Shown here piece after piece: positions 1 through 14,035 of a stretch of DNA of 32,000 bases (the first letter of the stretch is position 1; each line of letters begins with the position of its first letter). The position numbers and the translations under genes were made by a program. The notes under the pieces are model-generated. The model worked only from the letters and a program-made list of their open reading frames with translations. It was not told the DNA's origin and ran no database searches. Origin of the DNA: Halomicrobium mukohataei DSM 12286 (GTDB lineage: Archaea > Halobacteriota > Halobacteria > Halobacteriales > Haloarculaceae); assembly GCF_000023965.1 (NCBI RefSeq), contig NC_013202.1, forward strand, positions 450,001 through 482,000. Direction: 5' to 3'.

Positions 1-434
1 CCAGGTCCGTCGCAGATCGTGTACATCGAGATACGACCAACCCCTATCGTCGGTCTCGTCTTCGAGGCGCTCGGCAGCTCGGCGCACCCAGCGGTAAACA
101 GTCGATCCAGCAACGCCTATCAGAGGCTCGTCGTCGTCCTGCTGGTACGCGAGTGTCTCCGCGATGGTGACGACTTCGGACGGGACTGGCGGCTCTCTGT
201 ACTTGTCACGCTTCGCGTAGTCCTCCCAGATTCGGATGTGATCTCCTGTCGGTCCCTCCACGAGGTCCTCGGGACACACTCCGGTGATCTCCGACCGTCG
301 GAGACCAACCCGACCAGCGAGCAAGAAGGCGAGCCGCTGGTGAGGTGTCTCAGCTTCGTCGATCAACCGAGCCAATTCGTCGTCCGATAGCCACACTCGC
401 TTTCCGTCGTCGTCGTCGTAGTCCTTGAGTCTCA
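1..434 (-). CDS. Tyrosine recombinase / phage-type integrase. The N-terminal ~144 aa are visible and the C-terminus runs off the window.
   Basis: Absent from the ORF track because it is open at the window edge. Reverse translation from the ATG at 434..432 gives MRLKDYDDDDGKRVWLSDDELARLIDEAETPHQRLAFLLAGRVGLRRSEITGV...TVYRWVRRAAERL...SYLDVHDLRRTW. The box I Arg context (GLRRSE) and box II H-x-x-R (HDLRRT) are present. The catalytic Tyr would lie beyond position 1. Confidence 0.85.
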
Positions 435-791
435 TGCACTCGTTTCGCACTTCTATTGCAAAACATCTAGTTTTTTCGGTCGTCCAGGTCGTCTGAAGCT
501 CCGATGAGCGGTGAAAATGCACCAGAATGGGGGATTCTCGGGCGTTCCGAAGACAGTATTTTGAAGCGGGTAGCCGCTGGAACGACGACCAAATGATACC
601 GCAGGCTCTCATCGGTACGTCGCTGGGTCTGGTTGGAGTCGCGTCGCTGGCGTTCCTCTACCTCTGGTTCGAAGCAAAAACGATCTGACGAAGGTCCTGA
701 ACGGCTCTATGTGCCGAGAGGCGGACACGCTATCGCGCCGGTTCGGTGACCAGCGATGGGTCGCACCGCACCAGGATCTCGTTGTCGACGC

Positions 792-1025
792 TCACGACTC
801 ACCACCGCCATCGTCGACGGCGTCGGCCATCGCCTCCTGCTCGTCGGTCCCCGGCGGCGGTCGGTAGGGCAGCTTCGAGGCGACCGCTCGCCCGAAGCCC
901 TCGACGCGCTCCATCCCGTAGCGAGTCGGGACCGCCATGCCGGCCACCAGCATCAGGACCGCCAGCGCCACCGTCTGCGCGTCGGGCATCGGGAGCGCGG
1001 GCAGTGTCGACTGCAACGGGATCAC
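792..1025 (-). CDS. Hypothetical small membrane protein (provirus)
   Basis: 77-aa ORF with a hydrophobic segment (TVALAVLMLVAGMAV) and an acidic C-terminus. It has an ATGA overlap with the upstream ORF at 1022-1025. Confidence 0.5.
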   Translation of the reverse strand: MIPLQSTLPALPMPDAQTVALAVLMLVAGMAVPTRYGMERVEGFGRAVASKLPYRPPPGTDEQEAMADAVDDGGGES

Positions 1026-1234
1026 GACCCTTCACCCCCGATCGCGTCGGCGTCCACGTCGTAGGTCGGCCCCTCGTCGTGAACGCCGAAGGCCCGCAGG
1101 AGCGCCCTGAGCCGCTTGCGGTTCGACCGCGACCGCTGGGCCGTCCGACGCAGTACCTCCAACTGTGCGAGCTCGATAGCGACCAGCACGGACAGCAGTG
1201 CCGCGACCGCCCCGAGACCGATCTGGACACCCAT
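1022..1234 (-). CDS. Hypothetical small membrane protein (provirus)
   Basis: 70-aa ORF with an N-terminal TM segment (GLGAVAALLSVLVAIELA) followed by a basic stretch. It is coupled to its neighbours on both sides. Confidence 0.5.
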   Translation of the reverse strand: MGVQIGLGAVAALLSVLVAIELAQLEVLRRTAQRSRSNRKRLRALLRAFGVHDEGPTYDVDADAIGGEGS

Positions 1235-1686
1235 TAGAGCAACCCTCCGATGGCGTCCCCGGCGTCCTCGACCGTGTCGGCCGCGCCGCCGGTCGCCCAG
1301 CTAAAGCCGTTACCGGCCGCGTCACCAGCACCCTCGACCGTGTCGGCAGCGCCGCCAAGCCACCAGTCCATCCCGTCGCTGACAACGTCGCCGGTGCCGT
1401 CGGCCACGTCCGTCGCACCGTCCCAGCTATCGCCAGCAGCGCCGCCCACGTCATCCGCGGCATCCTGTGCGCCGTCAGCCACGTCGCTGCCGACGGTGAC
1501 GGCAGTGTACACGTAGTACAGTAGCCCGAGACCGATAACCACCATGAGGATCTGCCCGCCGCGAGACTCCGCGACCTGACGGGCATCGGCGCTGCCCTGC
1601 TTGGCAACATCGGCCACCTCGTCGGCGTTATCGGCGAGCGCGCCGCCGGCCGCTGCTGCCGCTGGAGCCGGACTCACCGCGACCAC
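1234..1686 (-). CDS. Hypothetical membrane protein with a Gly/Ala/Asp-rich repeat tail (provirus)
   Basis: 150-aa ORF with a GTG start and a TM segment (ILMVVIGLGLLYYVY). The motif GGAADTVE(G/D)AGDA occurs twice. At the DNA level an imperfect 24-bp repeat lies at about 1267-1290 and 1332-1355. Confidence 0.55.
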   Translation of the reverse strand: MVAVSPAPAAAAAGGALADNADEVADVAKQGSADARQVAESRGGQILMVVIGLGLLYYVYTAVTVGSDVADGAQDAADDVGGAAGDSWDGATDVADGTGDVVSDGMDWWLGGAADTVEGAGDAAGNGFSWATGGAADTVEDAGDAIGGLL

Positions 1687-2246
1687 CCCCAGATCGCGAC
1701 CAGCAGCGCGATCGCCCCAACTGTACCGACTGCCTCGATCGGCACGCCGGCCGGACCGGTCGGTGATCTGTCGTCCGATCCTGGGGAATCCGACGTGTCG
1801 GTACCGGGCGTCCCGTCGCCAGGCCAGTCGGTCGAGCCGTCCGGAGCGGTGGTCCCTCGATCCGCCTGACTGGAGTTCGGAGTGCCGTCGGTCCTGCTAT
1901 CCGGTGTGGTCACCACCGCGTCAGCAGATCCGTCGCCGTCGGTGTCCTCGACGCCCTCAGACGGGCCAACAGTCGTGTCGCTGCTGCCCTCGTTGCGGCC
2001 GGAGATGATCGTGTGATCCGAGCCGTTCGTTCCTGAGCCCGCATCTGGGTCCGGGGGCGAATAACCGTCGTCGCGCGAGTCGTCAGTCTGCCGGTCGATG
2101 AGGTCCTGTGTCTGCTCCGATCCGCGACTCGACGACGAACTGCTGTCGTCGTCGTTGTCGCCAGCCGTGTAGCTGCCGTCTCCCGCCGAGTCGATCGTAT
2201 CGTGACGATCGAGATACCGCGTCATCGCGGTGTCGTGGTCGCTCAT
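1674..2246 (-). CDS. Acidic Ser/Thr/Asp/Gly-rich protein with a C-terminal membrane anchor (provirus)
   Basis: 190-aa ORF. It is low-complexity and acidic throughout, ending in the hydrophobic tail VGTVGAIALLVAIWGWSR. Confidence 0.6.
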   Translation of the reverse strand: MSDHDTAMTRYLDRHDTIDSAGDGSYTAGDNDDDSSSSSSRGSEQTQDLIDRQTDDSRDDGYSPPDPDAGSGTNGSDHTIISGRNEGSSDTTVGPSEGVEDTDGDGSADAVVTTPDSRTDGTPNSSQADRGTTAPDGSTDWPGDGTPGTDTSDSPGSDDRSPTGPAGVPIEAVGTVGAIALLVAIWGWSR

Positions 2247-2336
2247 CGCTCGATACCTCTGGTCTGAGTGTTGTTGCTGTCGATCATGATTGTGTCATAG
2301 ATGCGCTGCCGGTAGTCGACCGGACCAGGAAGTCGG

Positions 2337-2876
2337 TCACGCGAGTGGCCCTCCGAGGTTCCCGCCACGGCCGACGCTGAGCCCTTTGAGCTTCACCGGA
2401 TCGAAATACAGTGTCGCCTCTCGATCCTGTGTCCCGATGGTCTGAGTCCCGTCCACGTCGTCGTCGTCCGCGAGCTGATACCAGACGTAGTCAACCCCAG
2501 ACCGGTCGCTGGACGCGATCACCACGAACGTCTCGTAGAGTACGTTTAGCAGCCACAGATCCGCTTCTCCGTTGTCGTCGACCCGCGCCGCCGTCGGGAA
2601 CACTCCTGCAGACTGCACCCAGACGGCGTCGCTGAGGGGCTGTCCGTCCGTATCTTTGAGCGTCACGTGTACCCGTCGGAAGTTACCCGTCGGGATCACG
2701 ATACCACGACCGGACCCGACTCTGTGAGCCGAAGCTCCGAGCCCGAACAGTCGGCGGTCGTGCCCGCCGTCCGTATCCTCGATACCGTTAGCGGTCCCCG
2801 AGAGGGCGAGCGCTCGGCGGTCGTGCCCGCCGTCCGTGAGCGTTGCCGACTGAGCCGCTCGTGTGTAGCTCGCCAT
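2337..2876 (-). CDS. Hypothetical protein with a beta-sandwich-like pattern (carboxypeptidase-regulatory-like); possible vertex or host-recognition component
   Basis: 179-aa ORF. The N-terminus has a duplicated TDGGHDRR motif, encoded by a perfect 24-bp direct repeat at 2751-2774 and 2814-2837. The segment VHVTLKDTDGQPLSDAVWVQ...DDNGEADLWLL...FVVIASS resembles CarboxypepD_reg-type sandwiches. This rests on pattern recognition only. Confidence 0.6.
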   Translation of the reverse strand: MASYTRAAQSATLTDGGHDRRALALSGTANGIEDTDGGHDRRLFGLGASAHRVGSGRGIVIPTGNFRRVHVTLKDTDGQPLSDAVWVQSAGVFPTAARVDDNGEADLWLLNVLYETFVVIASSDRSGVDYVWYQLADDDDVDGTQTIGTQDREATLYFDPVKLKGLSVGRGGNLGGPLA

Positions 2877-2882
2877 GATCGG

Positions 2883-3767
2883 TCAGTCCATGCGGAGCGC
2901 CACGCTCGCGGCGTCCCTGTTCAGGATTGTGTACAGGTCGTTCCCGTCGGCGTCTTGGATCGTGTCCCGGTGAGCGGCGTCTCCGCCGCTCCGCTCTTGG
3001 AGGACCATCTCATACCGCCCGATCACGGCGTCCGCGCCAGAGGCGTTGCGGTAGGAGCTCGATCGAGCCACGCCGTCCGTGTACGGGTAGTTGTTGTAGT
3101 TCGCGTCTGGGTTCGCGACTCCCTGTGCGTAGTGGTGCGGGCTGGATCCCGACTGTGCCATGCGGCAATCGAGAGCCACCTGTTTGATGGGGTTGTAGTC
3201 TATGGAGTCCGCCACGTGCCCGGCGACTCCGAAGATCATGTTCGCCTCGTGAGTGGCGGCGTCGTCGTAGTCCCACAGTTGCGTCACCTCCTCGAAGAAG
3301 ATCATGCCGTCGCCGTCGTTGCCGTCCGCCTCCTCTCTCTGGAAGTAGAGAGCGAACCCGGAGTCTACGTATTCCAACCAGTACGTCACGGCGTCTCCCT
3401 CTTGGATCCCGCCGCCGTCCGACTGGTGAGCCGTGATCTTACCCGTGGTCCCGTCGTTCCGGCCGATCTCCTTCAAACGATTGCCGGGATCGTTCGGGTA
3501 GCGATCGTTCCACGAGCTCGAACCGGTGTCCCAGTCCACGCCGTACTCGGGCGTGAGCCCGCGGTTATCTTGGTCCGTGTTCGGTCTGAACCGGATGTAC
3601 TCGTTGAACGGAGTGGCGATCACGAACCAGTCGTTCGTGGGAACTGAGGCGTCTCCGCCGCCGCTCGAAGTGTCCACCACGCTGTATCCGGTCATGCTCG
3701 TGACCTTATCTCTGAGTGCCGCCAGTGCTTTGCCCCACGTCGTCGCGATTGGTCCATCGAAAGTCAT
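2883..3767 (-). CDS. Hypothetical structural-type protein (provirus)
   Basis: 294-aa acidic ORF rich in Asp/Asn/Gly/Tyr/Trp. It is tightly packed, 2 nt after the upstream stop and 6 nt before the downstream start. I recognise no motif. Confidence 0.65.
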   Translation of the reverse strand: MTFDGPIATTWGKALAALRDKVTSMTGYSVVDTSSGGGDASVPTNDWFVIATPFNEYIRFRPNTDQDNRGLTPEYGVDWDTGSSSWNDRYPNDPGNRLKEIGRNDGTTGKITAHQSDGGGIQEGDAVTYWLEYVDSGFALYFQREEADGNDGDGMIFFEEVTQLWDYDDAATHEANMIFGVAGHVADSIDYNPIKQVALDCRMAQSGSSPHHYAQGVANPDANYNNYPYTDGVARSSSYRNASGADAVIGRYEMVLQERSGGDAAHRDTIQDADGNDLYTILNRDAASVALRMD

Positions 3768-3769
3768 TG

Positions 3770-4225
3770 TTACTTCAGTGCCAACACTTTCAGAGTGGTG
3801 TCGGCGTCACTCTCGGTCATCTTTCGGTACCACAGCTTTGAGGCGTTGAGTCCACCGGGTGGGCTGAGCGAAAACGGCGCTTCCGAGGCCGTCAGCGGGA
3901 TCTCGCGGTTGGTCCCGGTCTGCTGGAACGAGACCAGCACCGGCCCATCGAAGCCCCACACGGTGACCGTATCGGCGGGGAACCCCCAGTCGAGACTCTG
4001 CTGGCCGACGCCGTCGACGGCGACCGGCACCTCAGTCACGAAATACGTCGGCTCGTCGCTGGTGCTGGTCTCGCCGAGATACTGGTCGCCACGCTGGTCG
4101 AGCAACAGCGCGAGCAGGAGCCGGTCCGTGTCGCTCTCCAGCAGATCCTCGTGCCAGGAGTCGGCACCGAGACTGTATTCGGACAGCACCCGCTCGATGA
4201 CGCTGTCAGGGCCGACAGTGCTCAT
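3770..4225 (-). CDS. Hypothetical protein (provirus)
   Basis: This is the acidic C-terminal 151 aa of track ORF 3770..4531, starting at the internal ATG at 4225 (MSTVGPDSVIERVL...). The upstream 102 aa of that ORF are Arg/Cys/Thr-rich and overlap ORF 4284..4547 in another frame. Confidence 0.65.
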   Translation of the reverse strand: MSTVGPDSVIERVLSEYSLGADSWHEDLLESDTDRLLLALLLDQRGDQYLGETSTSDEPTYFVTEVPVAVDGVGQQSLDWGFPADTVTVWGFDGPVLVSFQQTGTNREIPLTASEAPFSLSPPGGLNASKLWYRKMTESDADTTLKVLALK

Positions 4226-4283
4226 TGGCTCATCACCACGTCGTTGCTGTTGTGCCGCCGTTCTGTGGCGGGTTCGTCGTGAA

Positions 4284-4547
4284 TCATATCGTACCGTCCT
4301 CCATCGCCGTGTACAGCAGCAGTACGAGCATGCACAGGGTGCTGGCCAGCAGCAGGTCGTCTCGGTTGATCGGACGCCCCCGGAGGATCTCGTCCAGCGC
4401 CGAGTCGTCCGGTCCGTACTGTTGGCCGTTTCCCTGACCAGTGCTCGTCGTCGCTGCTGCGGTGCGTGGCTCTCCGGGTTGATTGCGACCGGTGCCAGAT
4501 GCCTCTCGTCCGGTTGCATCTCGTGTAACAAGTCCGCCGGACGGCAC
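4284..4547 (-). CDS. Hypothetical small protein with a C-terminal TM segment (provirus)
   Basis: 87-aa ORF with a GTG start 4 nt after the upstream stop. It has a hydrophobic C-terminus (LLLASTLCMLVLLLY). Confidence 0.45.
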   Translation of the reverse strand: MPSGGLVTRDATGREASGTGRNQPGEPRTAAATTSTGQGNGQQYGPDDSALDEILRGRPINRDDLLLASTLCMLVLLLYTAMEDGTI

Positions 4548-4551
4548 GGCT

Positions 4552-5277
4552 CTACCTCCGTGCCGCGTCAGTCGCCACTGCCTGCTTCAGCCCGTCGATA
4601 GGACCTTCGGCTCCGCGGACGGGCAGGTCAGTGAGCGCGTTCGTTGCGACCACCTCAGTCCCCGATCCGGTCTCCGTAGCGAACGCGACCGTGTACGGGG
4701 CCGTGATGGTGAGTGCGAGCGTGAAGTCCGCCGGAACGAACGGATGGAGCGGGGACTGATCGGCGTCGACGGTGATGGGCTCTTTGCCCTGGTCCCGCCG
4801 GTGGATCATGCCCATATCCGCCGAAAAGAGAACGTCCGGCGTCCCGTTGGGTGCGACCTTTTGCAACTCCACGAGCGCCTGCGCTCCGCTCGTGTAGTAG
4901 GCCGTGAGCGTGTTGTCCGTCCCGTCGTCCGTGTAGTTGAACGAGTCTCCGGCGTAGTCGATCGAGTCGGGCTGAACCCGCTTGTCGCCCTCGTACAGGA
5001 CGAGCGAGTTGGTGACTACGCTCGAATCGATCAGTTCGTGAGACACGGAGAACGTCTCGCCGTCTCCGGCGTTTCCATCGGTCGTGAACGTCTCGCGAGC
5101 CACCAGCGACAGGTCGAACGGACGGGTTGCGTCGACGGACAGCGCCCGCTTGGGCTGGTACTCCGCGACGGTCGTGGGCTGTCCGGGCGATCCCGTCGAG
5201 AAGCTGAAGTCACCGTTCGTGATGTTGTCGCGGCTGGTGTTGGCCTCCCGAAGACGCTGCATGATCTGCTCGTTCAT
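4552..5277 (-). CDS. Putative large major capsid protein (assigned by size and position)
   Basis: 241-aa ORF lying directly after the 160-aa ORF and downstream of the ATPase. It has a beta-rich, Thr/Asp/Val-rich composition. The function is inferred only from gene order and size relative to sphaerolipoviruses. Confidence 0.45.
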   Translation of the reverse strand: MNEQIMQRLREANTSRDNITNGDFSFSTGSPGQPTTVAEYQPKRALSVDATRPFDLSLVARETFTTDGNAGDGETFSVSHELIDSSVVTNSLVLYEGDKRVQPDSIDYAGDSFNYTDDGTDNTLTAYYTSGAQALVELQKVAPNGTPDVLFSADMGMIHRRDQGKEPITVDADQSPLHPFVPADFTLALTITAPYTVAFATETGSGTEVVATNALTDLPVRGAEGPIDGLKQAVATDAARR

Positions 5278-5281
5278 GCTG

Positions 5282-5764
5282 TCAGTCCTCCGCTCGGACG
5301 GTCACGGCCTTGCGGTCGATCTCCAGACGCGAGTTGTCCCAGTCGATCTGGGTTGAAGAGTTGATAGCAACCTGCACCTCCTCGAAGTCGAGCACGATCA
5401 GGCCGTCACTCTTCAGTTCGGTCCGGGTCTGTTCTCGGTACTCCTCGTTCTGCTGTTCCTTGAGCGAGAGCGTCCGGTACTGTCGGATGTTGCTCAGTCG
5501 TTCGCTCACGATCATCGGCTGATCCCGGCTCGGGGTGTCCCACCGCAGGATCACCTCGGTGTCGCGGGGAAGGTCGTTCCCGTCGGCGTCCTTCAGCTCG
5601 GCGTAGATCGGGACGCCAGAACCGCCGTACACGTGATTGTCGATCTCGATGACGAGCCCGTCGACGGGCGACCACGTGAGGATCGTGCTGTCGGTGTCTG
5701 GGATGTTCGTCTCTTCCGTCGCGTCGACCTTCGCGCTGCCGAGATTGGTCAGGCTCTCCGACAT
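5282..5764 (-). CDS. Putative small major capsid protein (assigned by size and position)
   Basis: 160-aa ORF (MSESLTNLGSAKVDATEE...) with a 1-nt TGATG overlap with the upstream ORF. It lies 4 nt before the 241-aa ORF. The function is inferred from gene order and size only. Confidence 0.45.
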   Translation of the reverse strand: MSESLTNLGSAKVDATEETNIPDTDSTILTWSPVDGLVIEIDNHVYGGSGVPIYAELKDADGNDLPRDTEVILRWDTPSRDQPMIVSERLSNIRQYRTLSLKEQQNEEYREQTRTELKSDGLIVLDFEEVQVAINSSTQIDWDNSRLEIDRKAVTVRAED

Positions 5765-6027
5765 CAGTTACCCTCCGAGACCCGAGCGCGGAGTTCCTCC
5801 AGAACGTTGATGCCGCCGCCGATGGCGACCTTCCGGCCAGCGCCGCCGTAGAGCGCGCCGCCAGCGGCGACTGTCGCCCCGTAGGCTTCGTTCGGGAGGT
5901 CCCGTCCCATCTTGTCCTCGACTGCGTACTGCACGAGTTCCGGTGCCATGTACCCGCCGCCGATGAGGGCCACGTCCATCACGTAGTCCTCCGAGGCGAG
6001 CGTGTCGATTGCATTACTAAATTCCAT
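5764..6027 (-). CDS. Hypothetical Gly/Ala-rich small protein (provirus)
   Basis: I prefer the ATG at 6027 (MEFSNAIDTLASEDY...). The track uses a TTG at 6060. The sequence contains Gly-rich stretches (IGGGYMAP, AAGGALYGGAG, AIGGGIN). Confidence 0.55.
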   Translation of the reverse strand: MEFSNAIDTLASEDYVMDVALIGGGYMAPELVQYAVEDKMGRDLPNEAYGATVAAGGALYGGAGRKVAIGGGINVLEELRARVSEGN

Positions 6028-6110
6028 GCAATCGACCAGTACAGGCCCCAGGAGTATCAAGAACCGACGAATTGAGAACGTCCGAGAAAGCCTGAAACAG
6101 CCTCAGACAG

Positions 6111-6254
6111 TCAGAAACTGGCCATGTCCATGAGCCGGCGCACCGCCTCCGCGTTGCCCGGCTTGCTGCCCGGCTGGTTCTCCGCCATTGCCTCCTGCAT
6201 CGCATCGAATCGGTCGCTGTCGTCGCCGTACAGGGTGATTTGGGTCCGTGTCAT
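6111..6254 (-). CDS. Small ribbon-helix-helix (CopG-like) protein, 47 aa
   Basis: Below the track size cutoff. Translation is MTRTQITLYGDDSDRFDAMQEAMAENQPGSKPGNAEAVRRLMDMASF. It has a strand-helix-helix pattern and an ATGA overlap with the ATPase stop at 6251-6254. Confidence 0.5.
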   Translation of the reverse strand: MTRTQITLYGDDSDRFDAMQEAMAENQPGSKPGNAEAVRRLMDMASF

Positions 6255-7051: not shown

Positions 7052-7173
7052 CGCCGAGTCCTCCCGAGGTTCGTGAAGTCGTCGTGTCCACAGTTCGGGC
7101 AACTGCTGGGTGATAGACAGTCGGGCGGAGCCACCACCACATGACAGTTCTGGCAGGACCAAGCTTGTGTCAC
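7048..7173 (-). CDS. Small zinc-ribbon protein, 41 aa (CxxC ... CPxCG)
   Basis: Below the track cutoff as a stand-alone ORF. The GTG start at 7173 overlaps the upstream stop (GTGA). Translation is (M)TQAWSCQNCHVVVAPPDCLSPSSCPNCGHDDFTNLGRTRR. Its stop overlaps the GTG at 7051 of the ATPase. Confidence 0.5.
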   Translation of the reverse strand: MTQAWSCQNCHVVVAPPDCLSPSSCPNCGHDDFTNLGRTRR

Positions 7174-7448
7174 TGCTCGCCCTCCTCGCCGTCGCCCTCC
7201 TCGACGGGTTCGCCTTCGAGCCGGAGTGTGTCGCCGCCGGTCGTCCTGATACGTCGCTGCTCGCCGTCCCCGATCGCGTCGAGGTCCAGGTCGGTCAGGT
7301 AGGCGGAGTCGGGACGGTCGACGTTCATCTCGGTCTGGCTCGATCGGTCGCGTAGCATCTCGGCAATGAGCCACGCGATCCACACCAGGGCCAGCAGCCA
7401 GAAGCCCGCTTCGGCCCACTTCTGCATGTCGTAGGCGGATACCGTCAT
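7170..7448 (-). CDS. Hypothetical membrane protein (provirus)
   Basis: 92-aa ORF with a TM segment (GFWLLALVWIAWLIAEML) and an acidic tail. It has an ATGA overlap with the upstream gene. Confidence 0.6.
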   Translation of the reverse strand: MTVSAYDMQKWAEAGFWLLALVWIAWLIAEMLRDRSSQTEMNVDRPDSAYLTDLDLDAIGDGEQRRIRTTGGDTLRLEGEPVEEGDGEEGEQ

Positions 7449-8020
7449 GCGACCACCTCGGTCAGCGACTCGATCGCGTCGACGGTCTCGTCGGTCGGCT
7501 CTCCGAGCAGGTCCTCCATCGCTCGCTGGTCGTCTAACTCAACGACGGCCTGCTCGAACCGAGCGAGCGAGACGCCCCAGTGTCCCTGGACGTGCTTGTC
7601 GGCCAGCAGCCGGTCGTCGTACCCGTCGAGTCCGTCCTGCTGGTGGCGCACTGTGTCGGCCCACCGAGCGACCTGCCCCTCCCACTCGCCCCGGTCCATC
7701 TCCGCGTAGGTGAGGAGAGTCTGCGGGTCGTCGGTCTCGATGTCGTCGGGCAGGCAGTTGGACAGCCACACTTCGATCATCGACGGGCCGCCGGGGACCT
7801 TCGCCGCGATCACGTCGCAGAGTTCATCGACGCGGCTCTCGATGTCGAGCGGGTCGGTCTCCGGTTCCATGCCGGCCGTCTCCATCACGTCGATGTACGA
7901 CTCTCTCGGCCGGTTCTCCATCTCTGCCAGTACCCGAGCGGCTGCCCGGATCTTCTCGGAGTCGTGAGGGTTGTCTAGCTGCTTCTTCATCTCGCGCATC
8001 TCGTTGAGCTTCTGCATCAT
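7445..8020 (-). CDS. Hypothetical acidic protein (provirus)
   Basis: 191-aa ORF (MMQKLNEMREMKKQLDNPHD...) with ATGA overlaps at both ends. I recognise no motif. Confidence 0.65.
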   Translation of the reverse strand: MMQKLNEMREMKKQLDNPHDSEKIRAAARVLAEMENRPRESYIDVMETAGMEPETDPLDIESRVDELCDVIAAKVPGGPSMIEVWLSNCLPDDIETDDPQTLLTYAEMDRGEWEGQVARWADTVRHQQDGLDGYDDRLLADKHVQGHWGVSLARFEQAVVELDDQRAMEDLLGEPTDETVDAIESLTEVVA

Positions 8021-8622
8021 AGGCTGAGGTCCATGTCTTCCGCGATGTCACTGATAGCGTCCTGTGCCATGTCGGTCTCCGTGAGGATCACGACGAGCGC
8101 CAGCCCGGCCGTTCCGACGGCCACCTTCGTGCCGGGCGAGGTGTCGGCCCCAATACCGGCATCTTGTAGCCACTCATCCACCGCGTCGTCCATCTCGACC
8201 GGCGGTGATCGGGCCAGATCCTCGATGGCCTCGGCGTCCTTGCCGGTCTCGCCGTCGCTCGCCTCGGCGATCTCCCCGAGGAGGAGCGCCAGCATGGTGA
8301 CGTACTGCTCGCCCCATGATTCGCCGTCTGGTAGCGCCGGCTGTGTGGCCGTCTCGTCGGTTTCTTCGCTGTCGGGGTCGTCGGTGCCTGTCGTCTCGTC
8401 GCCGCTGTCGTCGCCGCCCTCGTCGTCGGGAGCGGCCTGCTCCTCAATCGCCTCCGTGTCGAGTTCGAGACCGTCGAGGTCGGCCTGCTCGTCCGGCTCG
8501 ATGTCCGGCAGGTCCTCCTCGGTCTCCTCTCCCTGCTCGTCGGCCGGCTCCTCCTCGGTCTCCTCTCCCTGCTCGTCGGCCGGCTCCTCCTCGACCGGCT
8601 CCTCGGTCTCGCTCACAGTCAT
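8017..8622 (-). CDS. Highly acidic protein with a C-terminal-region TM segment (provirus)
   Basis: Internal ATG at 8622 of track ORF 8017..9225 (MTVSETEEPVEEEPADEQGEETEE...). The TM segment is VAVGTAGLALVVIL. It has an ATGA overlap with 8619..9200 and contains a 36-bp tandem duplication. Confidence 0.65.
   Translation of the reverse strand: MTVSETEEPVEEEPADEQGEETEEEPADEQGEETEEDLPDIEPDEQADLDGLELDTEAIEEQAAPDDEGGDDSGDETTGTDDPDSEETDETATQPALPDGESWGEQYVTMLALLLGEIAEASDGETGKDAEAIEDLARSPPVEMDDAVDEWLQDAGIGADTSPGTKVAVGTAGLALVVILTETDMAQDAISDIAEDMDLSL
8515..8586. repeat. Perfect 36-bp tandem duplication inside a CDS
   Basis: ctcctcggtctcctctccctgctcgtcggccggctc occurs at 8515-8550 and again at 8551-8586, with a 7-nt start of a third copy. 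It encodes a duplicated 12-aa acidic block (protein segment EEEPADEQGEETEEEPADEQGEETEE). Confidence 0.9.
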
Positions 8623-9200
8623 ACCCACCCCTCGCCCTCCTCGACCGGGTCGGCGTCCGATACCTCGCTCTCGACTTCCATCGGCTCCTGGTCGTCGTCG
8701 CTGTCGGTGCCGGTCGCCAGCAGGATAGCCAGCCCGAGGGCCAGCGTAGCACCGAGGATTACCAGCCCTGACGGGCCAGATTGGCCGGTATCTGGCTGGC
8801 CTCCCGATTGCTGATTCTGGCCGTCTGACTGGTTCTCCTCGGTGTTCTCGCTGCCCTCCTCGCTGGTCTGTTGCTCGATCTGTTGCTCGTACTCCTCGGT
8901 CTGGTCCATTTCTGGCTGGTCTTTCTCGCTGGTTTCCTCGGTCTCTGGTTGCTCTCTGGCCGGATCTTGCTGGCCTTCGTCCTCGTCTCCCTCGGTAGCA
9001 GCCGCTCCACCCGTTCCGGGCGGGTCGTCGTCGCTGCTGTCCTCGTTGGTCTCGTCGTCCTGCTGGCCCTCGACGGCGGCCCGGATCTTGGGCCAGTCGT
9101 GCTTTCCGTCGGACCCCATCGAGTTGCTGTGAGACCGGAGACCGGCCAGACTGTCGCCGCTGTAGTCGCACCCGTCGATCGGGCAAGTGTAGTTGCTCAT
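8619..9200 (-). CDS. Membrane protein with an N-terminal Cys/His zinc-finger-like motif and an acidic Gln/Glu-rich linker (provirus)
   Basis: 193-aa ORF. The motif YTCPIDGCDYSGDSLAGLRSH...H is C2H2-like with atypical His spacing. The TM segment is LVILGATLALGLAILLA. It has ATGA overlaps at both ends. Confidence 0.65.
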   Translation of the reverse strand: MSNYTCPIDGCDYSGDSLAGLRSHSNSMGSDGKHDWPKIRAAVEGQQDDETNEDSSDDDPPGTGGAAATEGDEDEGQQDPAREQPETEETSEKDQPEMDQTEEYEQQIEQQTSEEGSENTEENQSDGQNQQSGGQPDTGQSGPSGLVILGATLALGLAILLATGTDSDDDQEPMEVESEVSDADPVEEGEGWV

Positions 9201-10657
9201 GTGTAGTTGAGAATGCCGCCCTCATCGTCTAACGCGGCCTTCTTCGCCTCTGCGGCCGCTACCTGTACCGTCTCGTTTGTCGATTTGAAACCGATCTCGT
9301 CGGGGTCGATCAGGTCGACGTACTCCATCGCGACGGCCTCCGCTTCGGGAGCGTCGGGGAGTCCGCTCGCTACGTCGATCGTCCCCGGCGGGCCGTGGAG
9401 CCTCACCACCCAGTCGTTGCGGGCCGCTCGGTCGATAGCGACCTTGTACGGCCCCGCTGTCCACGTCGTCCCCTCCCGAGTCCAGGCCGACGGGAGTGGC
9501 CCGACCGCGTCGTCCTCGTTCTCCCCGGTGAGCGTCACCTGCCGATCCTCTCCGGGGGTCTCCTCGGGCGACACGCCTGCCGAGAGTTGGGCCTGGCCTT
9601 CGCTGGCGAACGTGTCGGCCGTCTCGATCACCTCGGCCGGCTCGTCGTCCCGATCGTCGCCGCGCAGGTCGTCGGGCCGCCGGTCAGCCGGATCGGGCCG
9701 GGTCGGCTCTCGCTCTGCGAGCTCGGAGTCGGCGAGTTCGTCCCGATCGCCGCCGGGTTCCTGGGCGAAGTGATCCAGCGTCTTGACGATCGGGACCGAG
9801 CCGGGCATCGAGTCGAGCGAGTCGAGCAGGGTATGGAGCCGGTTCGGGTGTAGCTCCGGCTGGCCGTTGGCCTCCCTGATCCGGTTGATGGCCCGCCACG
9901 ACTGCCGGGCGTCGATCACTGCCTGTCGGGCGTCCGCTATCGCCGTTTCGAGGTCGCCCACGGCGTTCTTGTAGCCGCCCCAGGAACGCCGGAGCGCACC
10001 GGCCACCTCGGGCCGTAGCTCCATCTCCGGGTACTCGTCGCCGCCGACCGTGACGAGTTCCGTCTGCTCGCCGTCGTCGGCGTGATCCTCGTCGAGGAAC
10101 TGCTGCACTTCCTCCTCGTCGTAGCCGCAGGTCTCGGTGAGGAACTCGCAGGCTTCGGGATCACCCGCCTCGCAGTGGCCCCGTGCGTGGTCGCATCGCT
10201 CGCCCTTTGCCGTCTGGGCAGCGTCAGCGGCCTTCTCGTCGGCACTCTCCTGCTCGTCGGTGCGCTTGCCGCTCTCGCGGCTGGCGTCGGCCATCACCTC
10301 GCGGTGTTCGTCGACAGTCAGAGTGCCGTCGTAGTAGCTCACCCAGTCCTCGACGCCCTCGGACCGAGCGATCCCCTTGACCGCCTTCGCGTGGGGTACC
10401 GAGGCGCGTGCCTTCCCGAAGTCGATCCGGTCGCGCTCGCCGTCACTGAGCGGCACCTGACCGGGACCGTCGCTCCCTTCGCCCCGACTGTCCTCGGCTT
10501 CGAGTCGTTCGGCGTCGAGCACATGGTCGGGCGTGTCGGCGTCGGAGTAGGCGACGGTCTTCAGCCGACGGTCGTCGTCGGTACACAGATACTCCTCGTG
10601 TCGGTCTCTCGCGGCGTCTGCCGCGTCTTTACTCCCGTACTCGATACGTGTCGTCAC
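9197..10657 (-). CDS. Large acidic hypothetical protein, first gene of the long operon (provirus)
   Basis: 486-aa ORF with a GTG start. It has a Cys/His cluster (CDHARGHCEAGDPEACEFLTETC) and long acidic, apparently disordered stretches. I recognise no catalytic motif. Confidence 0.65.
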   Translation of the reverse strand: MTTRIEYGSKDAADAARDRHEEYLCTDDDRRLKTVAYSDADTPDHVLDAERLEAEDSRGEGSDGPGQVPLSDGERDRIDFGKARASVPHAKAVKGIARSEGVEDWVSYYDGTLTVDEHREVMADASRESGKRTDEQESADEKAADAAQTAKGERCDHARGHCEAGDPEACEFLTETCGYDEEEVQQFLDEDHADDGEQTELVTVGGDEYPEMELRPEVAGALRRSWGGYKNAVGDLETAIADARQAVIDARQSWRAINRIREANGQPELHPNRLHTLLDSLDSMPGSVPIVKTLDHFAQEPGGDRDELADSELAEREPTRPDPADRRPDDLRGDDRDDEPAEVIETADTFASEGQAQLSAGVSPEETPGEDRQVTLTGENEDDAVGPLPSAWTREGTTWTAGPYKVAIDRAARNDWVVRLHGPPGTIDVASGLPDAPEAEAVAMEYVDLIDPDEIGFKSTNETVQVAAAEAKKAALDDEGGILNYT

Positions 10658-10700
10658 GGGGGAGATGTCACCACCATACCCAACACTACCGACCTGTCTA

Positions 10701-10708
10701 GTATAAAA
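10701..10708 (-). promoter_or_regulatory. Candidate TATA box for the 9197..10657 operon
   Basis: The minus strand reads TTTTATAC in the A/T-richer gap at 10658-10758, about 45 nt upstream of the GTG start. Confidence 0.35.
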
Positions 10709-10758
10709 TCTGTCAACGAATGGATGAATGAGTGATTGACTGAGACGATGAGGGTCGT

Positions 10759-11385
10759 CTACCGGTCAGTAGCCGTGTCTACAGCACAGTCGTTTCCGCC
10801 GTCCGTAGCCGCAACTAAGGTCGTCTGTTCGGTCACATCGGGCACTTCCCCCGCTACTGGTGCTCCGCCACCTTTTCGATCGACGGAGAGCGCGATATCG
10901 TACCCGGACCAGTTCGGGGTGCGGAAGTAGTAGGTAGCGACCCGTTCCCAGCCGTCCCAGCCGTCGAGTCCGTCGGAGTTGTAGCCGAACGTCAGGACGT
11001 GGCCGCCGGGCGCGGTAACGTTCGCAATCGCACCTCTGGCCTCCCACTTCCGGCCGACGTGGTTCCCGTCGTAGTGTCGTTCAGCCATCTCAGCGGTGTA
11101 CGGCGGGTCGTAGACGACGGTGTCGAAGTGGTCGCGATCGAAGTGGTCGTCAATCTCACGAACGTCGAAGTGGGTGTCAACATCCCGATCCTCGTCGATG
11201 TCGTTCCGGGTGATCGGGCCGTCGTGGTCGAGGCTCGTCTTTCCGGCGCAGGCGTTCAAAACCTCCCCAGCGAGCCACTTTTCGACGATCGCCCGAATCT
11301 GTGGAACCTCGAATGTCCACGGCGAGAGGTGGACCGGCTCGCCGTCCTCGGTCTTCCCGCCGATCTTGATTCGCTCGACCGTCAC
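10759..11385 (-). CDS. SAM-dependent methyltransferase with a DPPY motif (DNA N6A/N4C-type or RsmD-like)
   Basis: Motif I-like VLNACAGKTS is followed about 50 aa later by TVVYDPPYT (motif IV). I prefer the GTG at 11385 (VTVERIKIGG) as the start because it overlaps the upstream small ORF stop as GTGA. The track uses TTG at 11436. Confidence 0.75.
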   Translation of the reverse strand: MTVERIKIGGKTEDGEPVHLSPWTFEVPQIRAIVEKWLAGEVLNACAGKTSLDHDGPITRNDIDEDRDVDTHFDVREIDDHFDRDHFDTVVYDPPYTAEMAERHYDGNHVGRKWEARGAIANVTAPGGHVLTFGYNSDGLDGWDGWERVATYYFRTPNWSGYDIALSVDRKGGGAPVAGEVPDVTEQTTLVAATDGGNDCAVDTATDR

Positions 11386-11537
11386 GCGGACCACCTCCGA
11401 CCGCAGGTTTCGCAGACCCAGCAATCGCCATCCCAACCGTGGAGAGTGTCACTGACGCAACGGTGGCAGTAGCGGAGCTGCGGCGACTCATCGGACGGGT
11501 GTTGTGGCGCTTGCCCGATCCGGTCAGTACTGCTCAT
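11382..11537 (-). CDS. Small zinc-ribbon protein, 51 aa
   Basis: Below the track cutoff. Translation is MSSTDRIGQAPQHPSDESPQLRYCHRCVSDTLHGWDGDCWVCETCGRRWSA. It has an ATGA overlap with the ASCH gene stop and a GTGA overlap with the methyltransferase start. Confidence 0.5.
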   Translation of the reverse strand: MSSTDRIGQAPQHPSDESPQLRYCHRCVSDTLHGWDGDCWVCETCGRRWSA

Positions 11538-11884
11538 GTACTGACCACCTCGAAAACGATGACTTCGACGTTTGTCGCGGGGAGAATCGTTTTTTGATAG
11601 TGGCTGTTGACACCATCGACCACCTCGTGGACAGTACTTGAACCGTAGTTTGCACCGAACAGGTCGAGTAGATCAGGGACTTCGACTGCCAGCACACTCG
11701 CTGTTCGCTTGATTTTGAGGATGGCGAACTCTAACCCGTCCTGTGTCGTCGCAGGCACATAGCTTCCAACAGCAGGTAACTCCATGTCGTATCGAACGGT
11801 CGCTGTCTTCTCCCCACCCAATATCTCACCGGCGTACGCCTCATCGAACTCCAGTTGTTCGGTACTCTCACTCACGGGAACCAC
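11534..11884 (-). CDS. ASCH (PUA-like) domain protein
   Basis: 116-aa ORF. The N-terminal signature FDEAYAGEILGGEKTATVRYD resembles the ASCH G-x-K-x-x-E/T-x-R pattern. It is visibly more A/T-rich than its surroundings, with many A/T-ending codons. Confidence 0.55.
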   Translation of the reverse strand: MVPVSESTEQLEFDEAYAGEILGGEKTATVRYDMELPAVGSYVPATTQDGLEFAILKIKRTASVLAVEVPDLLDLFGANYGSSTVHEVVDGVNSHYQKTILPATNVEVIVFEVVST

Positions 11885-11999
11885 CCCAGTCGCGGGCGTC
11901 TCGTCGGGTGAGGTGCGTCTGGCAGAGGTCAGTGATCGCGCCGACCCGGCGGCGAGTGTCGTCGTCCTCGATCTCGTCGAGCAGGTCGTCGCGGTTCAT
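11868..11999 (-). CDS. Small acidic hypothetical protein, 43 aa
   Basis: Below the track cutoff. Translation is MNRDDLLDEIEDDDTRRRVGAITDLCQTHLTRRDARDWGGSRE. It has an ATGA overlap with the stop of 11996..12397, and nearly all codons end in G or C. Confidence 0.4.
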   Translation of the reverse strand: MNRDDLLDEIEDDDTRRRVGAITDLCQTHLTRRDARDWGGSRE

Positions 12000-12397
12000 G
12001 ACTCCCACCCCATGAGTTGGTACGACGTGTCTCCGTAGACGTTGTTCTGGCGTCGGAGGTACCCGCGCTTGTGGAGCTTCCGGAGCACCTGCGTCCGGAT
12101 TTCGCTCTTTGGGATGTTCAGGACCGACGCCAGCAGCGTCAGAGCGACACTGCCCCGGACGTAGCCCTCGGGACTGGCGTGCTCACACAGCCGCTTGTAG
12201 GCGGTGCCCAGTCGGTCGTCCTGCGGTGGGGCGAGCGGCGTAGTGTTGTCGTGCTCGGTGTCGCAGGTCTGGGCCATGAGGGTCCGAAGTGCCTCGCTCC
12301 GGCTGCCATACTGGGACTCCTCAACCCAGCTATCGAAGGCGTCCACGAGATCGTCGTCGGCGCTGAAGCTGACTGACGCCCCGCCAGCCGTCTGCAT
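11996..12397 (-). CDS. Transcriptional regulator with an N-terminal ribbon-helix-helix and a C-terminal winged-helix-like domain
   Basis: I prefer the ATG at 12397 (MQTAGGASVSFSADDDLVDAFDSWVEESQYGSRSEALRTLMAQ = RHH pattern). The C-terminal segment ALTLLASVLNIPKSEIRTQVLRKLHKRGYLRRQ is wHTH-like. Confidence 0.65.
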   Translation of the reverse strand: MQTAGGASVSFSADDDLVDAFDSWVEESQYGSRSEALRTLMAQTCDTEHDNTTPLAPPQDDRLGTAYKRLCEHASPEGYVRGSVALTLLASVLNIPKSEIRTQVLRKLHKRGYLRRQNNVYGDTSYQLMGWES

Positions 12398-12412
12398 CAC
12401 CACGACCGACCA

Positions 12413-12444
12413 CCTCGATTAATAGATATCGAGGGGTGATTAAT
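12413..12444 (-). promoter_or_regulatory. Candidate promoter/operator: an inverted repeat flanking a TATA-like box, plus a GATTAAT direct repeat
   Basis: CCTCGAT (12413-12419) and ATCGAGG (12428-12434) form a 7-bp inverted repeat. On the minus strand, TATTAAT (12418-12424) lies about 24 nt upstream of the ATG at 12397. GATTAAT occurs at 12417-12423 and 12438-12444, 21 bp apart. Confidence 0.45.
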
Positions 12445-12536
12445 CGCAACACGGCGGAGTGGTGAGCAATGCTTAATGATCCCCCATGTAGGGGTCGCTG
12501 GGAGAGTCGCGCCGGTGTGCGTGCCCGTGCGCCGCG

Positions 12537-12680
12537 TCATCGGCGGACCTCCCAGAAGCAGTCCGTACACGTTTCCTCGCCGTCGACGTAGGTACACTCG
12601 CCGACGTTGCCGCAGGTACAGCGTCCCTCGAACCAGATTCGGCGGTCAGAGGGTGCTGGTGTCTGCTCGTGGGTCGACAT
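12537..12680 (-). CDS. Small zinc-ribbon protein, 47 aa
   Basis: Below the track cutoff. Translation is MSTHEQTPAPSDRRIWFEGRCTCGNVGECTYVDGEETCTDCFWEVRR. The ATG at 12680 directly follows the TAG stop (12683..12681) of the SWIM/HTH gene. Confidence 0.5.
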   Translation of the reverse strand: MSTHEQTPAPSDRRIWFEGRCTCGNVGECTYVDGEETCTDCFWEVRR

Positions 12681-13235
12681 CTACAGGTCACCCCCGAGTT
12701 TTTCGCGGGCAGAAGCCAGCAGGTTCCCGATCGTGCCGGGCGATCGGTCGGTTCGGCGGGCGAAGGGGCGAACGCCCGCGTCGGCTACGTCACAGTGCAG
12801 GAACGCGTCAAGTTCGGCAGGAGAAAGGTCGTCAAGTGGTCGTGATGGTGGGTCGAAGCGGAGCCATGCTGGTGGCTCTGGGTAGTCTCTCCCGGTGTGA
12901 AGGTGCGAGACGACGATCCGACCGCGTACCCACTGCCACCAGAGAGAGGCGACGTGAGCGCACCAGCCGTCGTTGAAGCGGTGTCCTCGACAGTCGCAGT
13001 CGGCCAGTAGCGTCTGGCCTTGGAGTGCCCACGTCACTCTGTGAGAGCCTTCACCGCCGCTGAGACGAACCATGCGCTCGGCGTCGTTGATGGGGCCGCC
13101 CTGGTCCACCTCGGTCTGTGCGCGTTCCCACGGCGTCGAGCTGGTCAGTTGCTCCGGCATGGAGAAGCTCGACGGCCCGCCGATCTCGTCGGGCAGGTCG
13201 TCGCTGGGTTGCCAGCCGGGGCTGGCACGACTCAC
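12681..13235 (-). CDS. SWIM zinc-finger protein with a C-terminal HTH (sigma-70 region 4 / LuxR-like)
   Basis: CDCRGHRFNDGWCAHV matches the SWIM pattern CxCx(n)CxH. The C-terminal segment LSPAELDAFLHCDVADAGVRPFARRTDRSPGTIGNLLASAREKL is HTH-like. The start is GTG at 13235, with an alternative ATG at 13160. Confidence 0.65.
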   Translation of the reverse strand: MSRASPGWQPSDDLPDEIGGPSSFSMPEQLTSSTPWERAQTEVDQGGPINDAERMVRLSGGEGSHRVTWALQGQTLLADCDCRGHRFNDGWCAHVASLWWQWVRGRIVVSHLHTGRDYPEPPAWLRFDPPSRPLDDLSPAELDAFLHCDVADAGVRPFARRTDRSPGTIGNLLASAREKLGGDL

Positions 13236-13411
13236 GCCAGACCACCCCCGTTTTCCTTCGCGAGAGTGCCGGACAGCGGCGGGGTGAATCCCGCGGTGTA
13301 AGTAATTCGCTCAGAGAGGGCTGTTCTTTCCGAACAGTCGAGAGCGAAAAGGCTGTTTGAGGTGTGTGAATCCGGCGAAAAACGGACCTTCGAGATGATC
13401 CGATATAGCGA

Positions 13412-13483
13412 TGGACTCGCCGGGATTTGAACCCGGGGCCTCTTCCTTGCGAAGGAAGCGATCTGCCACTGATCTACGAGCCC
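13412..13483 (-). tRNA. tRNA-Ala (anticodon CGC)
   Basis: The reverse complement is GGGCTCGTAGATCAGTGGCAGATCGCTTCCTTCGCAAGGAAGAGGCCCCGGGTTCAAATCCCGGCGAGTCCA. A 7-bp acceptor stem carries the G3:U70 alanine identity pair. The anticodon loop is TTCGCAA, the T-arm is CCGGG/TTCAAAT/CCCGG, the discriminator is A, and CCA is not encoded. Confidence 0.93.
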
Positions 13484-13723: not shown

Positions 13724-14035
13724 TCAGTCCTCGAGGACGATCTCGATGGAGACGTCGTTCGGGACCTGGATCCGCATGAGCTGGCGCAGTGCTCGCTCGT
13801 CGGCGTCGATGTCGATGAGCCGCTTGTGGACGCGCATCTCCCAGTGTTCCCACGTCGCGGTCCCTTCGCCGTCGGGGGACTTGCGGGTGGGGACTTCCAG
13901 CGTCTTGGTCGGTAGCGGGACGGGGCCCGAGAGCTCGACGCCGGTCTTGTTCGCGATCTCGCGAACGTCACCGCAGATGTCGTCGAGGTCCTCGGGACTG
14001 GTCCCTGCCAGCCGGACGCGTGCCTGTTGGGACAT
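13724..14035 (-). CDS. rps10: 30S ribosomal protein S10 (uS10)
   Basis: 103-aa ORF: [44 protein letters not shown]...[30 protein letters not shown]. This is the classic uS10 sequence and it lies 3 nt after tuf. Confidence 0.95.

Follow-up and report, generated by a model that had tools for sequence, protein, structure and literature searches.

The window analysed here, 32,000 nt of the chromosome of Halomicrobium mukohataei DSM 12286 (NC_013202.1, positions 450,001 to 482,000), opens inside an integrated virus, and we hold it to be very likely, with a probability of about 0.88, that window positions 1-13424 make up the part next to the tRNA, 13.4 kb long, of an SNJ1-like provirus of 16,131 bp (at about NC_013202 447,294-463,424) seated in the 3' end of a tRNA-Ala(CGC) gene. 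SNJ1 itself is a haloarchaeal virus without a tail and with a membrane. An initial reading made from the letters of the window (here, the sequence-only reading) had proposed a temperate haloarchaeal virus of at least 13.4 kb at the 3' side of this tRNA gene, and the attachment (att) site copy, the empty site and the viral homologues reported below support that proposal. The same reading had taken an integrase at the left window edge and the tRNA as the brackets of the element; this bracketing had to be given up, since the element continues for 2.7 kb past window position 1.

No further copy of the 3' end of the tRNA turned up in the window when up to 3 mismatches were allowed, and generic direct repeats within the window were rejected as att candidates, being noise from GC-rich acidic codons. 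The sequence was extended to the left through locus L013 (contig RZNE01000011.1), which was found via the full-length protein of the integrase gene cut by the window edge (int1), is identical to window positions 1356..1 and reaches 10.2 kb further. The left att duplication for which the sequence-only reading had advised a search lies in this extension, as an exact copy of a 14-nt core from the tRNA 3' end; the distance from core to core is the 16,131 bp given above. A longer copy, of 59 nt, is reported in the literature some 26 kb further to the left.

The locus was compared with nine other Halomicrobium-type genomes and metagenome contigs retrieved by lookup of the identical S10 protein. The chromosome CP045142.1 (3,094,203 bp) matches window positions 24035-13411 with 0 mismatches in 10,625 nt and L013 positions 4064-11581 with 0 mismatches in 7,518 nt, and what the two matches share is just the 14-nt core. 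Over these 18 kb of flank the chromosome is identical, and what it lacks is precisely the 16,131-bp unit; the two chromosomes differ in length by 16,284 bp, nearly the same figure. Because an otherwise identical chromosome is without exactly the core-to-core unit, the element is discrete and has been recently mobile. Among the other genomes, two have no element at the locus, one retains a remnant of about 120 nt of its first bases and three carry unrelated or distantly related elements, so that an empty site in relatives, for which the sequence-only reading had also advised a comparison, does exist, once with flanks that are 100% identical. The three marks of a tRNA-integrated provirus, namely a distal direct repeat, an intact proximal tRNA gene and an empty site in a relative, are all present.

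The distal core copy lies just past a second tyrosine integrase gene, int2. Its product is 42% identical to IntSNJ2 over 99% of its length (E=3e-72) and 64.8% identical to the Harhisp1 integrase. Harhisp1, whose integration target is tRNA-Ala of Haloarcula hispanica, is a pleolipovirus obtained in the form of an induced, circular genome. In our reading of the alignment the catalytic set R153, K185, H283-x-x-R286 and Y318 is conserved, an alanine stands at R153+3 (MRRGA, the Glu/Asp-I position) and Val309 occupies Y-9 (the His/Trp-III position). SNJ2-type integrases are defined by Gly or Ala in place of Glu/Asp-I and by Ala or Val in place of His/Trp-III (PMC5861418), and by its full-length homology and these residues int2 is a member of that family. 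The annotated 15-nt attP of Harhisp1, CCCGGCGAGTCCATG, follows its integrase gene after 53 nt, and CCCGGCGAGTCCAT, the core of the present element, constitutes its first 14 nt; for subgroup I of the SNJ2-type integrases a 14-bp core at 48 bp has been described (PMC5861418). The modules of IntSNJ2, Harhisp1, HHPV4 and HRPV9 have their short core, as is the case here, within the 3' end of a tRNA and roughly 50 nt downstream from the integrase gene, whereas the known carriers of SNJ2-type modules are temperate pleolipoviruses and the carrier in this case is a simulovirus-like genome.

Since core and spacing are those of Harhisp1, int2 would catalyse integration and excision by recombining the core of a circular 16.1-kb genome with the tRNA 3' end, whereby the tRNA would be restored. 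The predicted attP of the circle reads ...GCACCGCGGAAAACCTG[CCCGGCGAGTCCAT]CGCTATATCGGATCATCTCG... and the attB-like junction expected after excision reads ...GGTTCAAAT[CCCGGCGAGTCCAT]ACCGGTTCTTCGTCCTGGCG....

The viral nature of the block emerged from searches of PHROGs and from a direct comparison in which all open reading frames (ORFs) of the element were matched by blastp against all annotated proteins of SNJ1 and NVIV1; Pfam was near-blank on the main ORFs. The comparison returned 13 structural homologues, all 13 of them full-length ORFs and standing in the same order as in those viruses, and in addition two homologues of helix-turn-helix (HTH) proteins. The order is VP2, VP3, VP4, VP5/ORF02, ATPase, VP6, small major capsid protein (MCP), large MCP, ORF10, PB1 and VP1, to which gp29/ORF08 is added. 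The identity of the SNJ1 proteins to those of the element is 28-48%, and that of the NVIV1 proteins reaches 54% (ORF10). Among 50,697 phage and archaeal-virus records the ATPase matched solely the annotated packaging ATPases of SNJ1, NVIV1 and HJIV1, at 41-43% identity, and it also matches HerA chains in the PDB; for the small MCP the best PDB matches, weak ones, are to VP7, the small capsid protein, in the virion structures 6h82 and 6qt9. Two adjacent major capsid genes, small and large, with the ATPase gene upstream are features of Simuloviridae, and by homology the element has both; the single jelly-roll fold of such capsid proteins would agree with the weak VP7 matches. On the strength of the ordered SNJ1/NVIV1 structural homologues, the block is assigned to a virus like SNJ1 (Simuloviridae-like; the former Betasphaerolipovirus), of which it holds the virion module and an early module.

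Along the minus strand the layout runs from the tRNA and att core through an early or regulatory module, consisting of a 184-aa HTH protein (CxC..CxH), a ribbon-helix-helix (RHH) protein, an ASCH-domain protein, a zinc ribbon and a DNA methyltransferase, to the SNJ1-collinear virion module, int1, an RHH pair, a CxxC protein, an HTH protein, int2 and the second core. The packaging-type P-loop ATPase, the capsid ORFs, the methyltransferase and the small RHH, HTH and zinc proteins named by the sequence-only reading were borne out by PHROGs, blastp and Pfam, and the homologues of the block are viral proteins of SNJ1, NVIV1 and HJIV1, not conserved chromosomal genes. That most of the proteins have no Pfam domain would also be expected of a non-viral integrative plasmid or genomic island whose FtsK-like ATPase is there by chance; the chance of this is close to nil, as no conjugation or plasmid-replication genes occur in the block and both MCPs together with nine further SNJ1/NVIV1 virion proteins stand in viral order, a capsid homology that already contradicts it.

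According to the profile issued by the international virus taxonomy committee (ICTV), the members of Simuloviridae share 17-21 ORFs, have circular dsDNA genomes of 16-19 kb and are all episomal. The size of the element from core to core fits this range, and its 13 + 2 homologues are slightly below the number of ORFs shared among accepted members. Tailless icosahedral virions of 70 nm with an internal membrane, and lysis after induction, also characterise the family. SNJ1, NVIV1 and HJIV1 (genus Yingchengvirus) have in common with the element the two MCPs, the packaging ATPase, VP1-VP6, PB1 and HTH regulators of the gp7/ORF16 kind. The element is, however, integrated in the chromosome, unlike the episomal members of the family, and has two tyrosine recombinases where these three viruses have none. 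SNJ1 RepA (rolling-circle, HUH) and the MazE-type ORF4/ORF5 are without a blastp homologue in the element, although NVIV1, an accepted member, is likewise without RepA (ICTV profile). Its host genus, Halomicrobium, is not among the hosts in the profile, where only Natrinema and Haloterrigena (order Natrialbales) appear. By its gene content the element thus misses some of the features that describe Simuloviridae, yet it clearly shares the virion module. The alphasphaerolipoviruses SH1, PH1, HHIV-2 and HCIV-1 and the Thermus phage P23-77 belong to the same class, with two vertical single-jelly-roll MCPs and an ATPase, but sequence similarity is marginal (the ATPase of HCIV-1 is only 23% identical), and those viruses have linear genomes with terminal proteins and are non-integrative, unlike the integrated element described here.

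The ORF at the window edge, int1, begins as a tyrosine recombinase, as the sequence-only reading had it, but it is not the terminal integrase, the SNJ2-type int2 being the one that adjoins the att core. The int1 protein consists of a catalytic domain only (219 aa, the remaining 74 codons lying beyond the window), with the motifs LRRSE, HDLRR and a C-terminal W...HY visible in the sequence. That the earlier borders were nevertheless right, with int1 as the integrase and the element ending just past it where the tRNA 3' end is duplicated, is very improbable: the recombinase motifs of int1 are canonical and it is the best conserved gene of the provirus group (83-88% identity in four Haloarcula proviruses), but neither the window nor the 350 nt beyond int1 contains a tRNA-derived repeat, the genes past int1 are homologous to SNJ1 gp7/NVIV1 ORF16 and are kept in relatives, and the deletion end points of CP045142.1 lie 2.5 kb past the end of int1, a junction which already contradicts that placement. 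Core and deletion end points adjoin int2, not int1. An accessory role may be envisaged for int1, for example in the resolution of multimers; a search for inverted repeats around int1 as its recombination sites gave nothing convincing. Proteins similar to int1 (34% identical) and int2 (40% identical) are both encoded by the Haloferax virus LSV-48N, and int1 homologues are found at Haladaptatus loci without an obvious virion module.

The supposition of the sequence-only reading that much of the element might be undescribed does not apply to a locus that has already been published, with a structural module that falls within a recognised virus family. HaloMukP1 and HaloMukP2 of this species were reportedly defined by Jalasvuori and colleagues in 2010 (J Bacteriol). 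In the literature that cites them, they appear as SNJ1-related proviruses of H. mukohataei that share genes with SNJ1. Porter et al. (2013) described ViPRE Hmuk1 at NC_013202 424105-463483 (39,379 nt), with tRNA-Ala at the right end and a 59-nt partial tRNA copy beside an integrase at the left end, and treated its SNJ1-like ORFs and the adjoining pleolipovirus-like ORFs as one mosaic locus. Position 463483 of NC_013202 is window position 13483, the 5' end of the tRNA, and hence the locus is the same. The ATPase is 100% identical to a protein of H. mukohataei (P0001). The global similarity of the ATPase to HCIV-1 ORF13 is 37.0%, and the published similarities to HCIV-1 are 37.0% for HaloMukP1 and 29% for HaloMukP2; solely from the match of this 37% figure the element would be HaloMukP1 rather than HaloMukP2. 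Since the tRNA coordinate and the ATPase similarity agree with the published locus, which has been known since 2010 under the names HaloMukP1/P2 and since 2013 as the portion of ViPRE Hmuk1 that resembles SNJ1, the present finding is a rediscovery. It departs from the description of 2013, of one mosaic with a 59-nt repeat, in four respects: a 14-nt core inside the locus, a separate unit of 16,131 bp that has its own integrase of the SNJ2 type, a natural empty site and a Harhisp1-like provirus as tandem neighbour.

The DNA after the second core copy is collinear with Harhisp1, beginning exactly at the attP of Harhisp1, and is 74% identical to it over the first 471 nt; in the NTPase-to-spike region, nucleotide identity is 79% across 2.9 kb. 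Because the DNA past the second core copy corresponds to a Harhisp1-like provirus, ViPRE Hmuk1 is, as judged by this collinearity, a tandem array in which the neighbour is a Harhisp1-like betapleolipovirus provirus. The SNJ1-like unit is the tRNA-proximal member of the array, and both proviruses are bounded by the same core. The neighbour (L013 4064-11581; L019 10612-20312; approximately window -2707 to -12400) encodes a DUF7563 CxxC protein, a D12 methyltransferase, a DUF7845 protein and a 618-aa protein.

We consider it improbable that the functional unit is instead the whole 39.4-kb ViPRE Hmuk1, a single mosaic with the 59-nt repeat in which the SNJ1-like genes form a cassette. The locus was published in this form, flanked by a direct repeat of 59 nt and with Hmuk_0446, an Orc1/Cdc6 gene, in its distal part (Porter et al. 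2013), and the SNJ1-like part, having no replication gene of its own, could depend on its neighbour. Nevertheless, CP045142.1 is without the 16,131-bp unit only and has kept the pleolipovirus-like part, which there abuts the tRNA, collinearity of the neighbour with an autonomous virus begins exactly at the attP of that virus, and the Haloarcula relatives have the SNJ1-like unit with int1 and int2 and no pleolipovirus part.

Several observations weigh against an SNJ1-like provirus as we describe it. A replication initiator was not found: by Pfam, PHROGs and blastp, neither SNJ1 RepA nor NVIV1 ORF19 has a homologue in the element, and domains of the Orc1, MCM or primase kind are likewise absent. 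The lysis-lysogeny switch ORF4/ORF5 of SNJ1 is without a blastp homologue; the divergent RHH pair, which would act as the lysogeny switch, sits at the equivalent position but has no sequence relationship to it. The products of the two genes upstream of int2 show no BLASTP similarity to Orf2 and Orf3, the accessory proteins that IntSNJ2 requires; Orf2 is a coiled-coil and Orf3 a DNA-binding protein, both are needed for integration, and 14 of 38 elements are without candidates for them (PMC5861418). The att core is only 14 nt long, and the presence or absence of the unit can be read as gain or as loss. The circular junction is absent from assembled contigs, all six contigs that carry the first gene (6/6) having the integrated configuration.

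The possibility of a decaying or domesticated provirus, which may be excisable or was once deleted and yet no longer replicates itself or makes virions, carries real weight, although we regard it as unlikely. It agrees with the failure to find a replication initiator, SNJ1-type switch genes or circular-form contigs, and the literature calls the activity of such proviruses unknown. On the other hand, the structural homologues are full-length without exception and conserved in order, the att cores are intact and CP045142.1 is without the unit exactly between them, the accepted member NVIV1 also does without RepA, and near relatives in several genera argue for ongoing spread. An intact SNJ1-like provirus could, by contrast, still form virions. 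Tentatively, and at somewhat less than even odds, we go further and suggest a live integrative simulovirus-like lineage with an SNJ2-type module taken up from, or shared with, pleolipoviruses, a conserved second recombinase reduced to its catalytic domain and RepA-free replication.

If this were so, the integrases of two unrelated viruses could excise either element or both together, since one tRNA-Ala core is common to both tandem proviruses, and this would offer a concrete mechanism for the shuffling of capsid modules that has been proposed for ViPREs; a strain with the CP045142.1 chromosome would serve as a ready cured indicator host. What the analysis adds to the published record is the resolution of the 'remarkable mosaic' ViPRE Hmuk1 into two ordinary proviruses in tandem at one 14-nt core, the exact borders of the 16,131-bp unit and a naturally element-free sister chromosome. 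It bears on the ICTV picture of simuloviruses as purely episomal and introduces no new class of biology.

Relatives of the element were sought in other genomes. A contig search with the int1 fragment returned four Haloarcula relatives and one Halomarina relative. In the four Haloarcula genomes (salina, amylolytica, rubra and pellucida) the order is ATPase, VP6, capsid proteins, int1, 69-aa protein, 184-aa protein and int2 homologue. The most variable gene of these relatives is int2, and as it is only 35-47% identical, the Haloarcula int2 proteins represent other subgroups, probably with other targets; the Haloarcula salina element ends at CCCGGCGAGTCCATC. The int1 protein of Haloarcula marismortui falls in the same 90% cluster as int1, and IHP of that species is probably an SNJ1-like provirus as well. 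The closest metagenomic relative (L028; JGI 3300026966, an 18-kb contig) has an ATPase that is 85% identical and shows 80% nucleotide identity over the ATPase-VP6 region; it adjoins a tRNA-Pro(TGG) at 464-536, and no integrase was called in the retrieved part of the contig. Scans of IMG/VR with the ATPase, both as a single sequence and as a profile, returned one 16.3-kb viral contig with 41% ATPase identity. In a Natrinema chromosome (L032; GCA_053786285.1) a structural set of NVIV1 size (245, 163, 91, 262, 194, 175, 215 and 364 aa) adjoins an int1-like gene and a 335-aa int2-like integrase with a SAM-like domain, and integrated simulovirus-like proviruses thus occur also in the host genus of the episomal type members. 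As the Haloarcula, metagenomic and Natrinema relatives show, integrated SNJ1-like elements are common, and their integration module is exchangeable, as has been proposed for SNJ2-type modules.

The rps10/tRNA-Ala site itself is a hot spot of integration, and across L018-L027 it occurs in six states or more. The site is empty in L021 and L022, holds the remnant of about 120 nt of an SNJ1-like arm in L020 and bears the pleolipovirus-like element alone in L019. L018 carries a different sphaerolipovirus-like provirus with a VP16-like capsid protein, the first gene of which is 91% identical to that of the window. Two small tandem elements with three core copies are present in L024, and L027 also has three copies.

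If the element closed into a circle, with L013 approximately 3910-4077 meeting window 13410-13311, an ORF of 80-88 aa would arise across the att core; it would start inside the 3' end of int2 and stop some 75 nt short of the 184-aa gene. While the element is integrated, the distal half of this ORF corresponds to a 52-aa ORF (13311-13469) that overlaps the tRNA. This junction ORF resembles the attP-spanning coding sequence reported for integrative pleolipoviruses (PMC7911831).

Features of the provirus and its flanks, listed from the right flank leftwards along the minus strand (window positions unless L013 is given)
Feature	Position	Strand	Evidence or remark
Homoserine dehydrogenase, followed by an ACT-domain protein	15550-16503		Pfam
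GTP_EFTU/aEF-1alpha	14039-15301		Pfam
Ribosomal_S10	13724-14035		Pfam
tRNA-Ala(CGC), the single tRNA in the window, intact	13412-13483	-	ARAGORN
att core copy 1, CCCGGCGAGTCCAT	13411-13424	-	last 13 nt of the tRNA + 1 nt
HTH protein, 184 aa, first gene after att	12681-13235	-	blastp NVIV1 ORF16 E=4e-14, SNJ1 gp7 3e-12; phrog_6362
RHH-type DNA-binding protein, 133-135 aa	11996-12403	-	PF01402 RHH_1, weak; phrog_22505 E=1.5e-65
ASCH-domain protein, 116 aa	11534-11884	-	PF04266 E=7.5e-07
Zinc-ribbon protein, 51 aa	11382-11537	-	two CxxC pairs; weak Zn_Ribbon match
DNA methyltransferase, 211 aa	10759-11394	-	phrog_11619 E=2.3e-75
VP2 (SNJ1) / ORF26 (NVIV1) homologue, 486 aa	9197-10657	-	blastp SNJ1 VP2, 48% identity, E=2e-71
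VP3 homologue, 193 aa	8619-9200	-	blastp SNJ1 VP3 E=1.6e-4; gene-order position matches
VP4 homologue, 201 aa	8017-8622	-	blastp SNJ1 VP4 E=3e-11
VP5 / NVIV1 ORF02 homologue, 191 aa	7445-8020	-	blastp ORF02 E=2.6e-4; gene-order position matches
92-aa protein, N-terminal hydrophobic stretch	7170-7448	-	ORF and gene call; SNJ1 gp22 position
Packaging ATPase, FtsK/HerA type, 266 aa	6251-7051	-	SNJ1/NVIV1/HJIV1 ATPases E=5e-56; phrog_2666 E=1e-55
VP6 homologue, 87 aa	5764-6027	-	blastp NVIV1 ORF04 E=9e-9, SNJ1 VP6 4e-7
Small major capsid protein, 160 aa	5282-5764	-	blastp SNJ1 PB7, 38% identity, E=6e-27
Large major capsid protein, 241 aa	4552-5277	-	NVIV1 large MCP, 38% identity, E=1e-45; SNJ1 PB2 E=1e-43
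87-aa protein, C-terminal hydrophobic stretch	4284-4547	-	ORF; SNJ1 gp28 position
NVIV1 ORF10 homologue, 150 aa	3770-4222	-	blastp, 54% identity, E=5.5e-51
SNJ1 structural protein PB1 homologue, 294 aa	2883-3767	-	tblastn, 31% identity, E=6e-21; phrog_20439 E=3e-151
SNJ1 VP1 homologue, 179 aa	2337-2876	-	blastp E=2e-23; phrog_33192
Four small acidic/hydrophobic proteins, 190, 150, 70 and 77 aa	792-2246	-	ORFs
int1, tyrosine recombinase, N-terminal 145 of 219 aa	1-435 (full gene L013 922-1581)	-	PF00589; phrog_1 E=4.5e-14; full protein ACV46605.1
Divergent RHH pair beyond int1, 80 aa and 69 aa		- (80 aa), + (69 aa)	both phrog_4738 'transcriptional repressor'
184-aa Cys-motif (CxxC) protein beyond the RHH pair
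72-aa HTH protein beyond the CxxC protein			NVIV1 ORF16 / SNJ1 gp7 homologue, E=2e-19
int2, second tyrosine integrase, 336 aa	L013 3001-4011		SAM-like and catalytic domains
att core copy 2, CCCGGCGAGTCCAT, exact	L013 4064-4077 = window -2707..-2720		52 nt past the int2 stop codon

About 25 ORFs with coding-type GC content at third codon positions form an unbroken minus-strand run from 13235 down to 1, and the gene calls on the sequence-identical NCBI contig give the same genes. This agrees with the sequence-only description of a tRNA gene and a minus-strand block free of housekeeping genes, with rps10, tuf and hom to the right, which ARAGORN, the ORF analysis and Pfam uphold. The tRNA-Ala gene likewise adjoins rps10 in every Halomicrobium locus examined.

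The C-terminal HTH of the 184-aa first gene product resembles SNJ1 gp7/gp9 and NVIV1 ORF16; its CxC..CxH motif is visible in the sequence, and the label of SWIM zinc finger is our own reading of that motif, without a domain match. The 184-aa protein beyond int1 was compared with it as a possible paralogue and is not related. Among the four small proteins between VP1 and int1, the 150-aa protein resembles NVIV1 ORF08 / SNJ1 gp29 (blastp E=2e-5) and the 77-aa protein is kept in the Haloarcula relatives. The protein Hmuk_0476 has been likened to the spike protein VP6 of SH1 and PH1 (PMC3622292), and by our inference it is probably the 179-aa VP1 homologue.

The longest intergenic gap of the element (window 436-791, 356 bp) lies upstream of int1 and is AT-rich in places, for instance in TTGCAAAACATCTAGTTTTTT. 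The gap is a candidate for a promoter region or, since no replication gene was found, for an origin region; the early module at 10.7-13.4 kb is a further candidate for the replicon. The draft assembly GCA_003992375.1 is identical to the window wherever the two overlap, yet it is broken three times inside the provirus, with contig ends at window positions 5391, 3903/1577 and 1356, none of which is at an att site.

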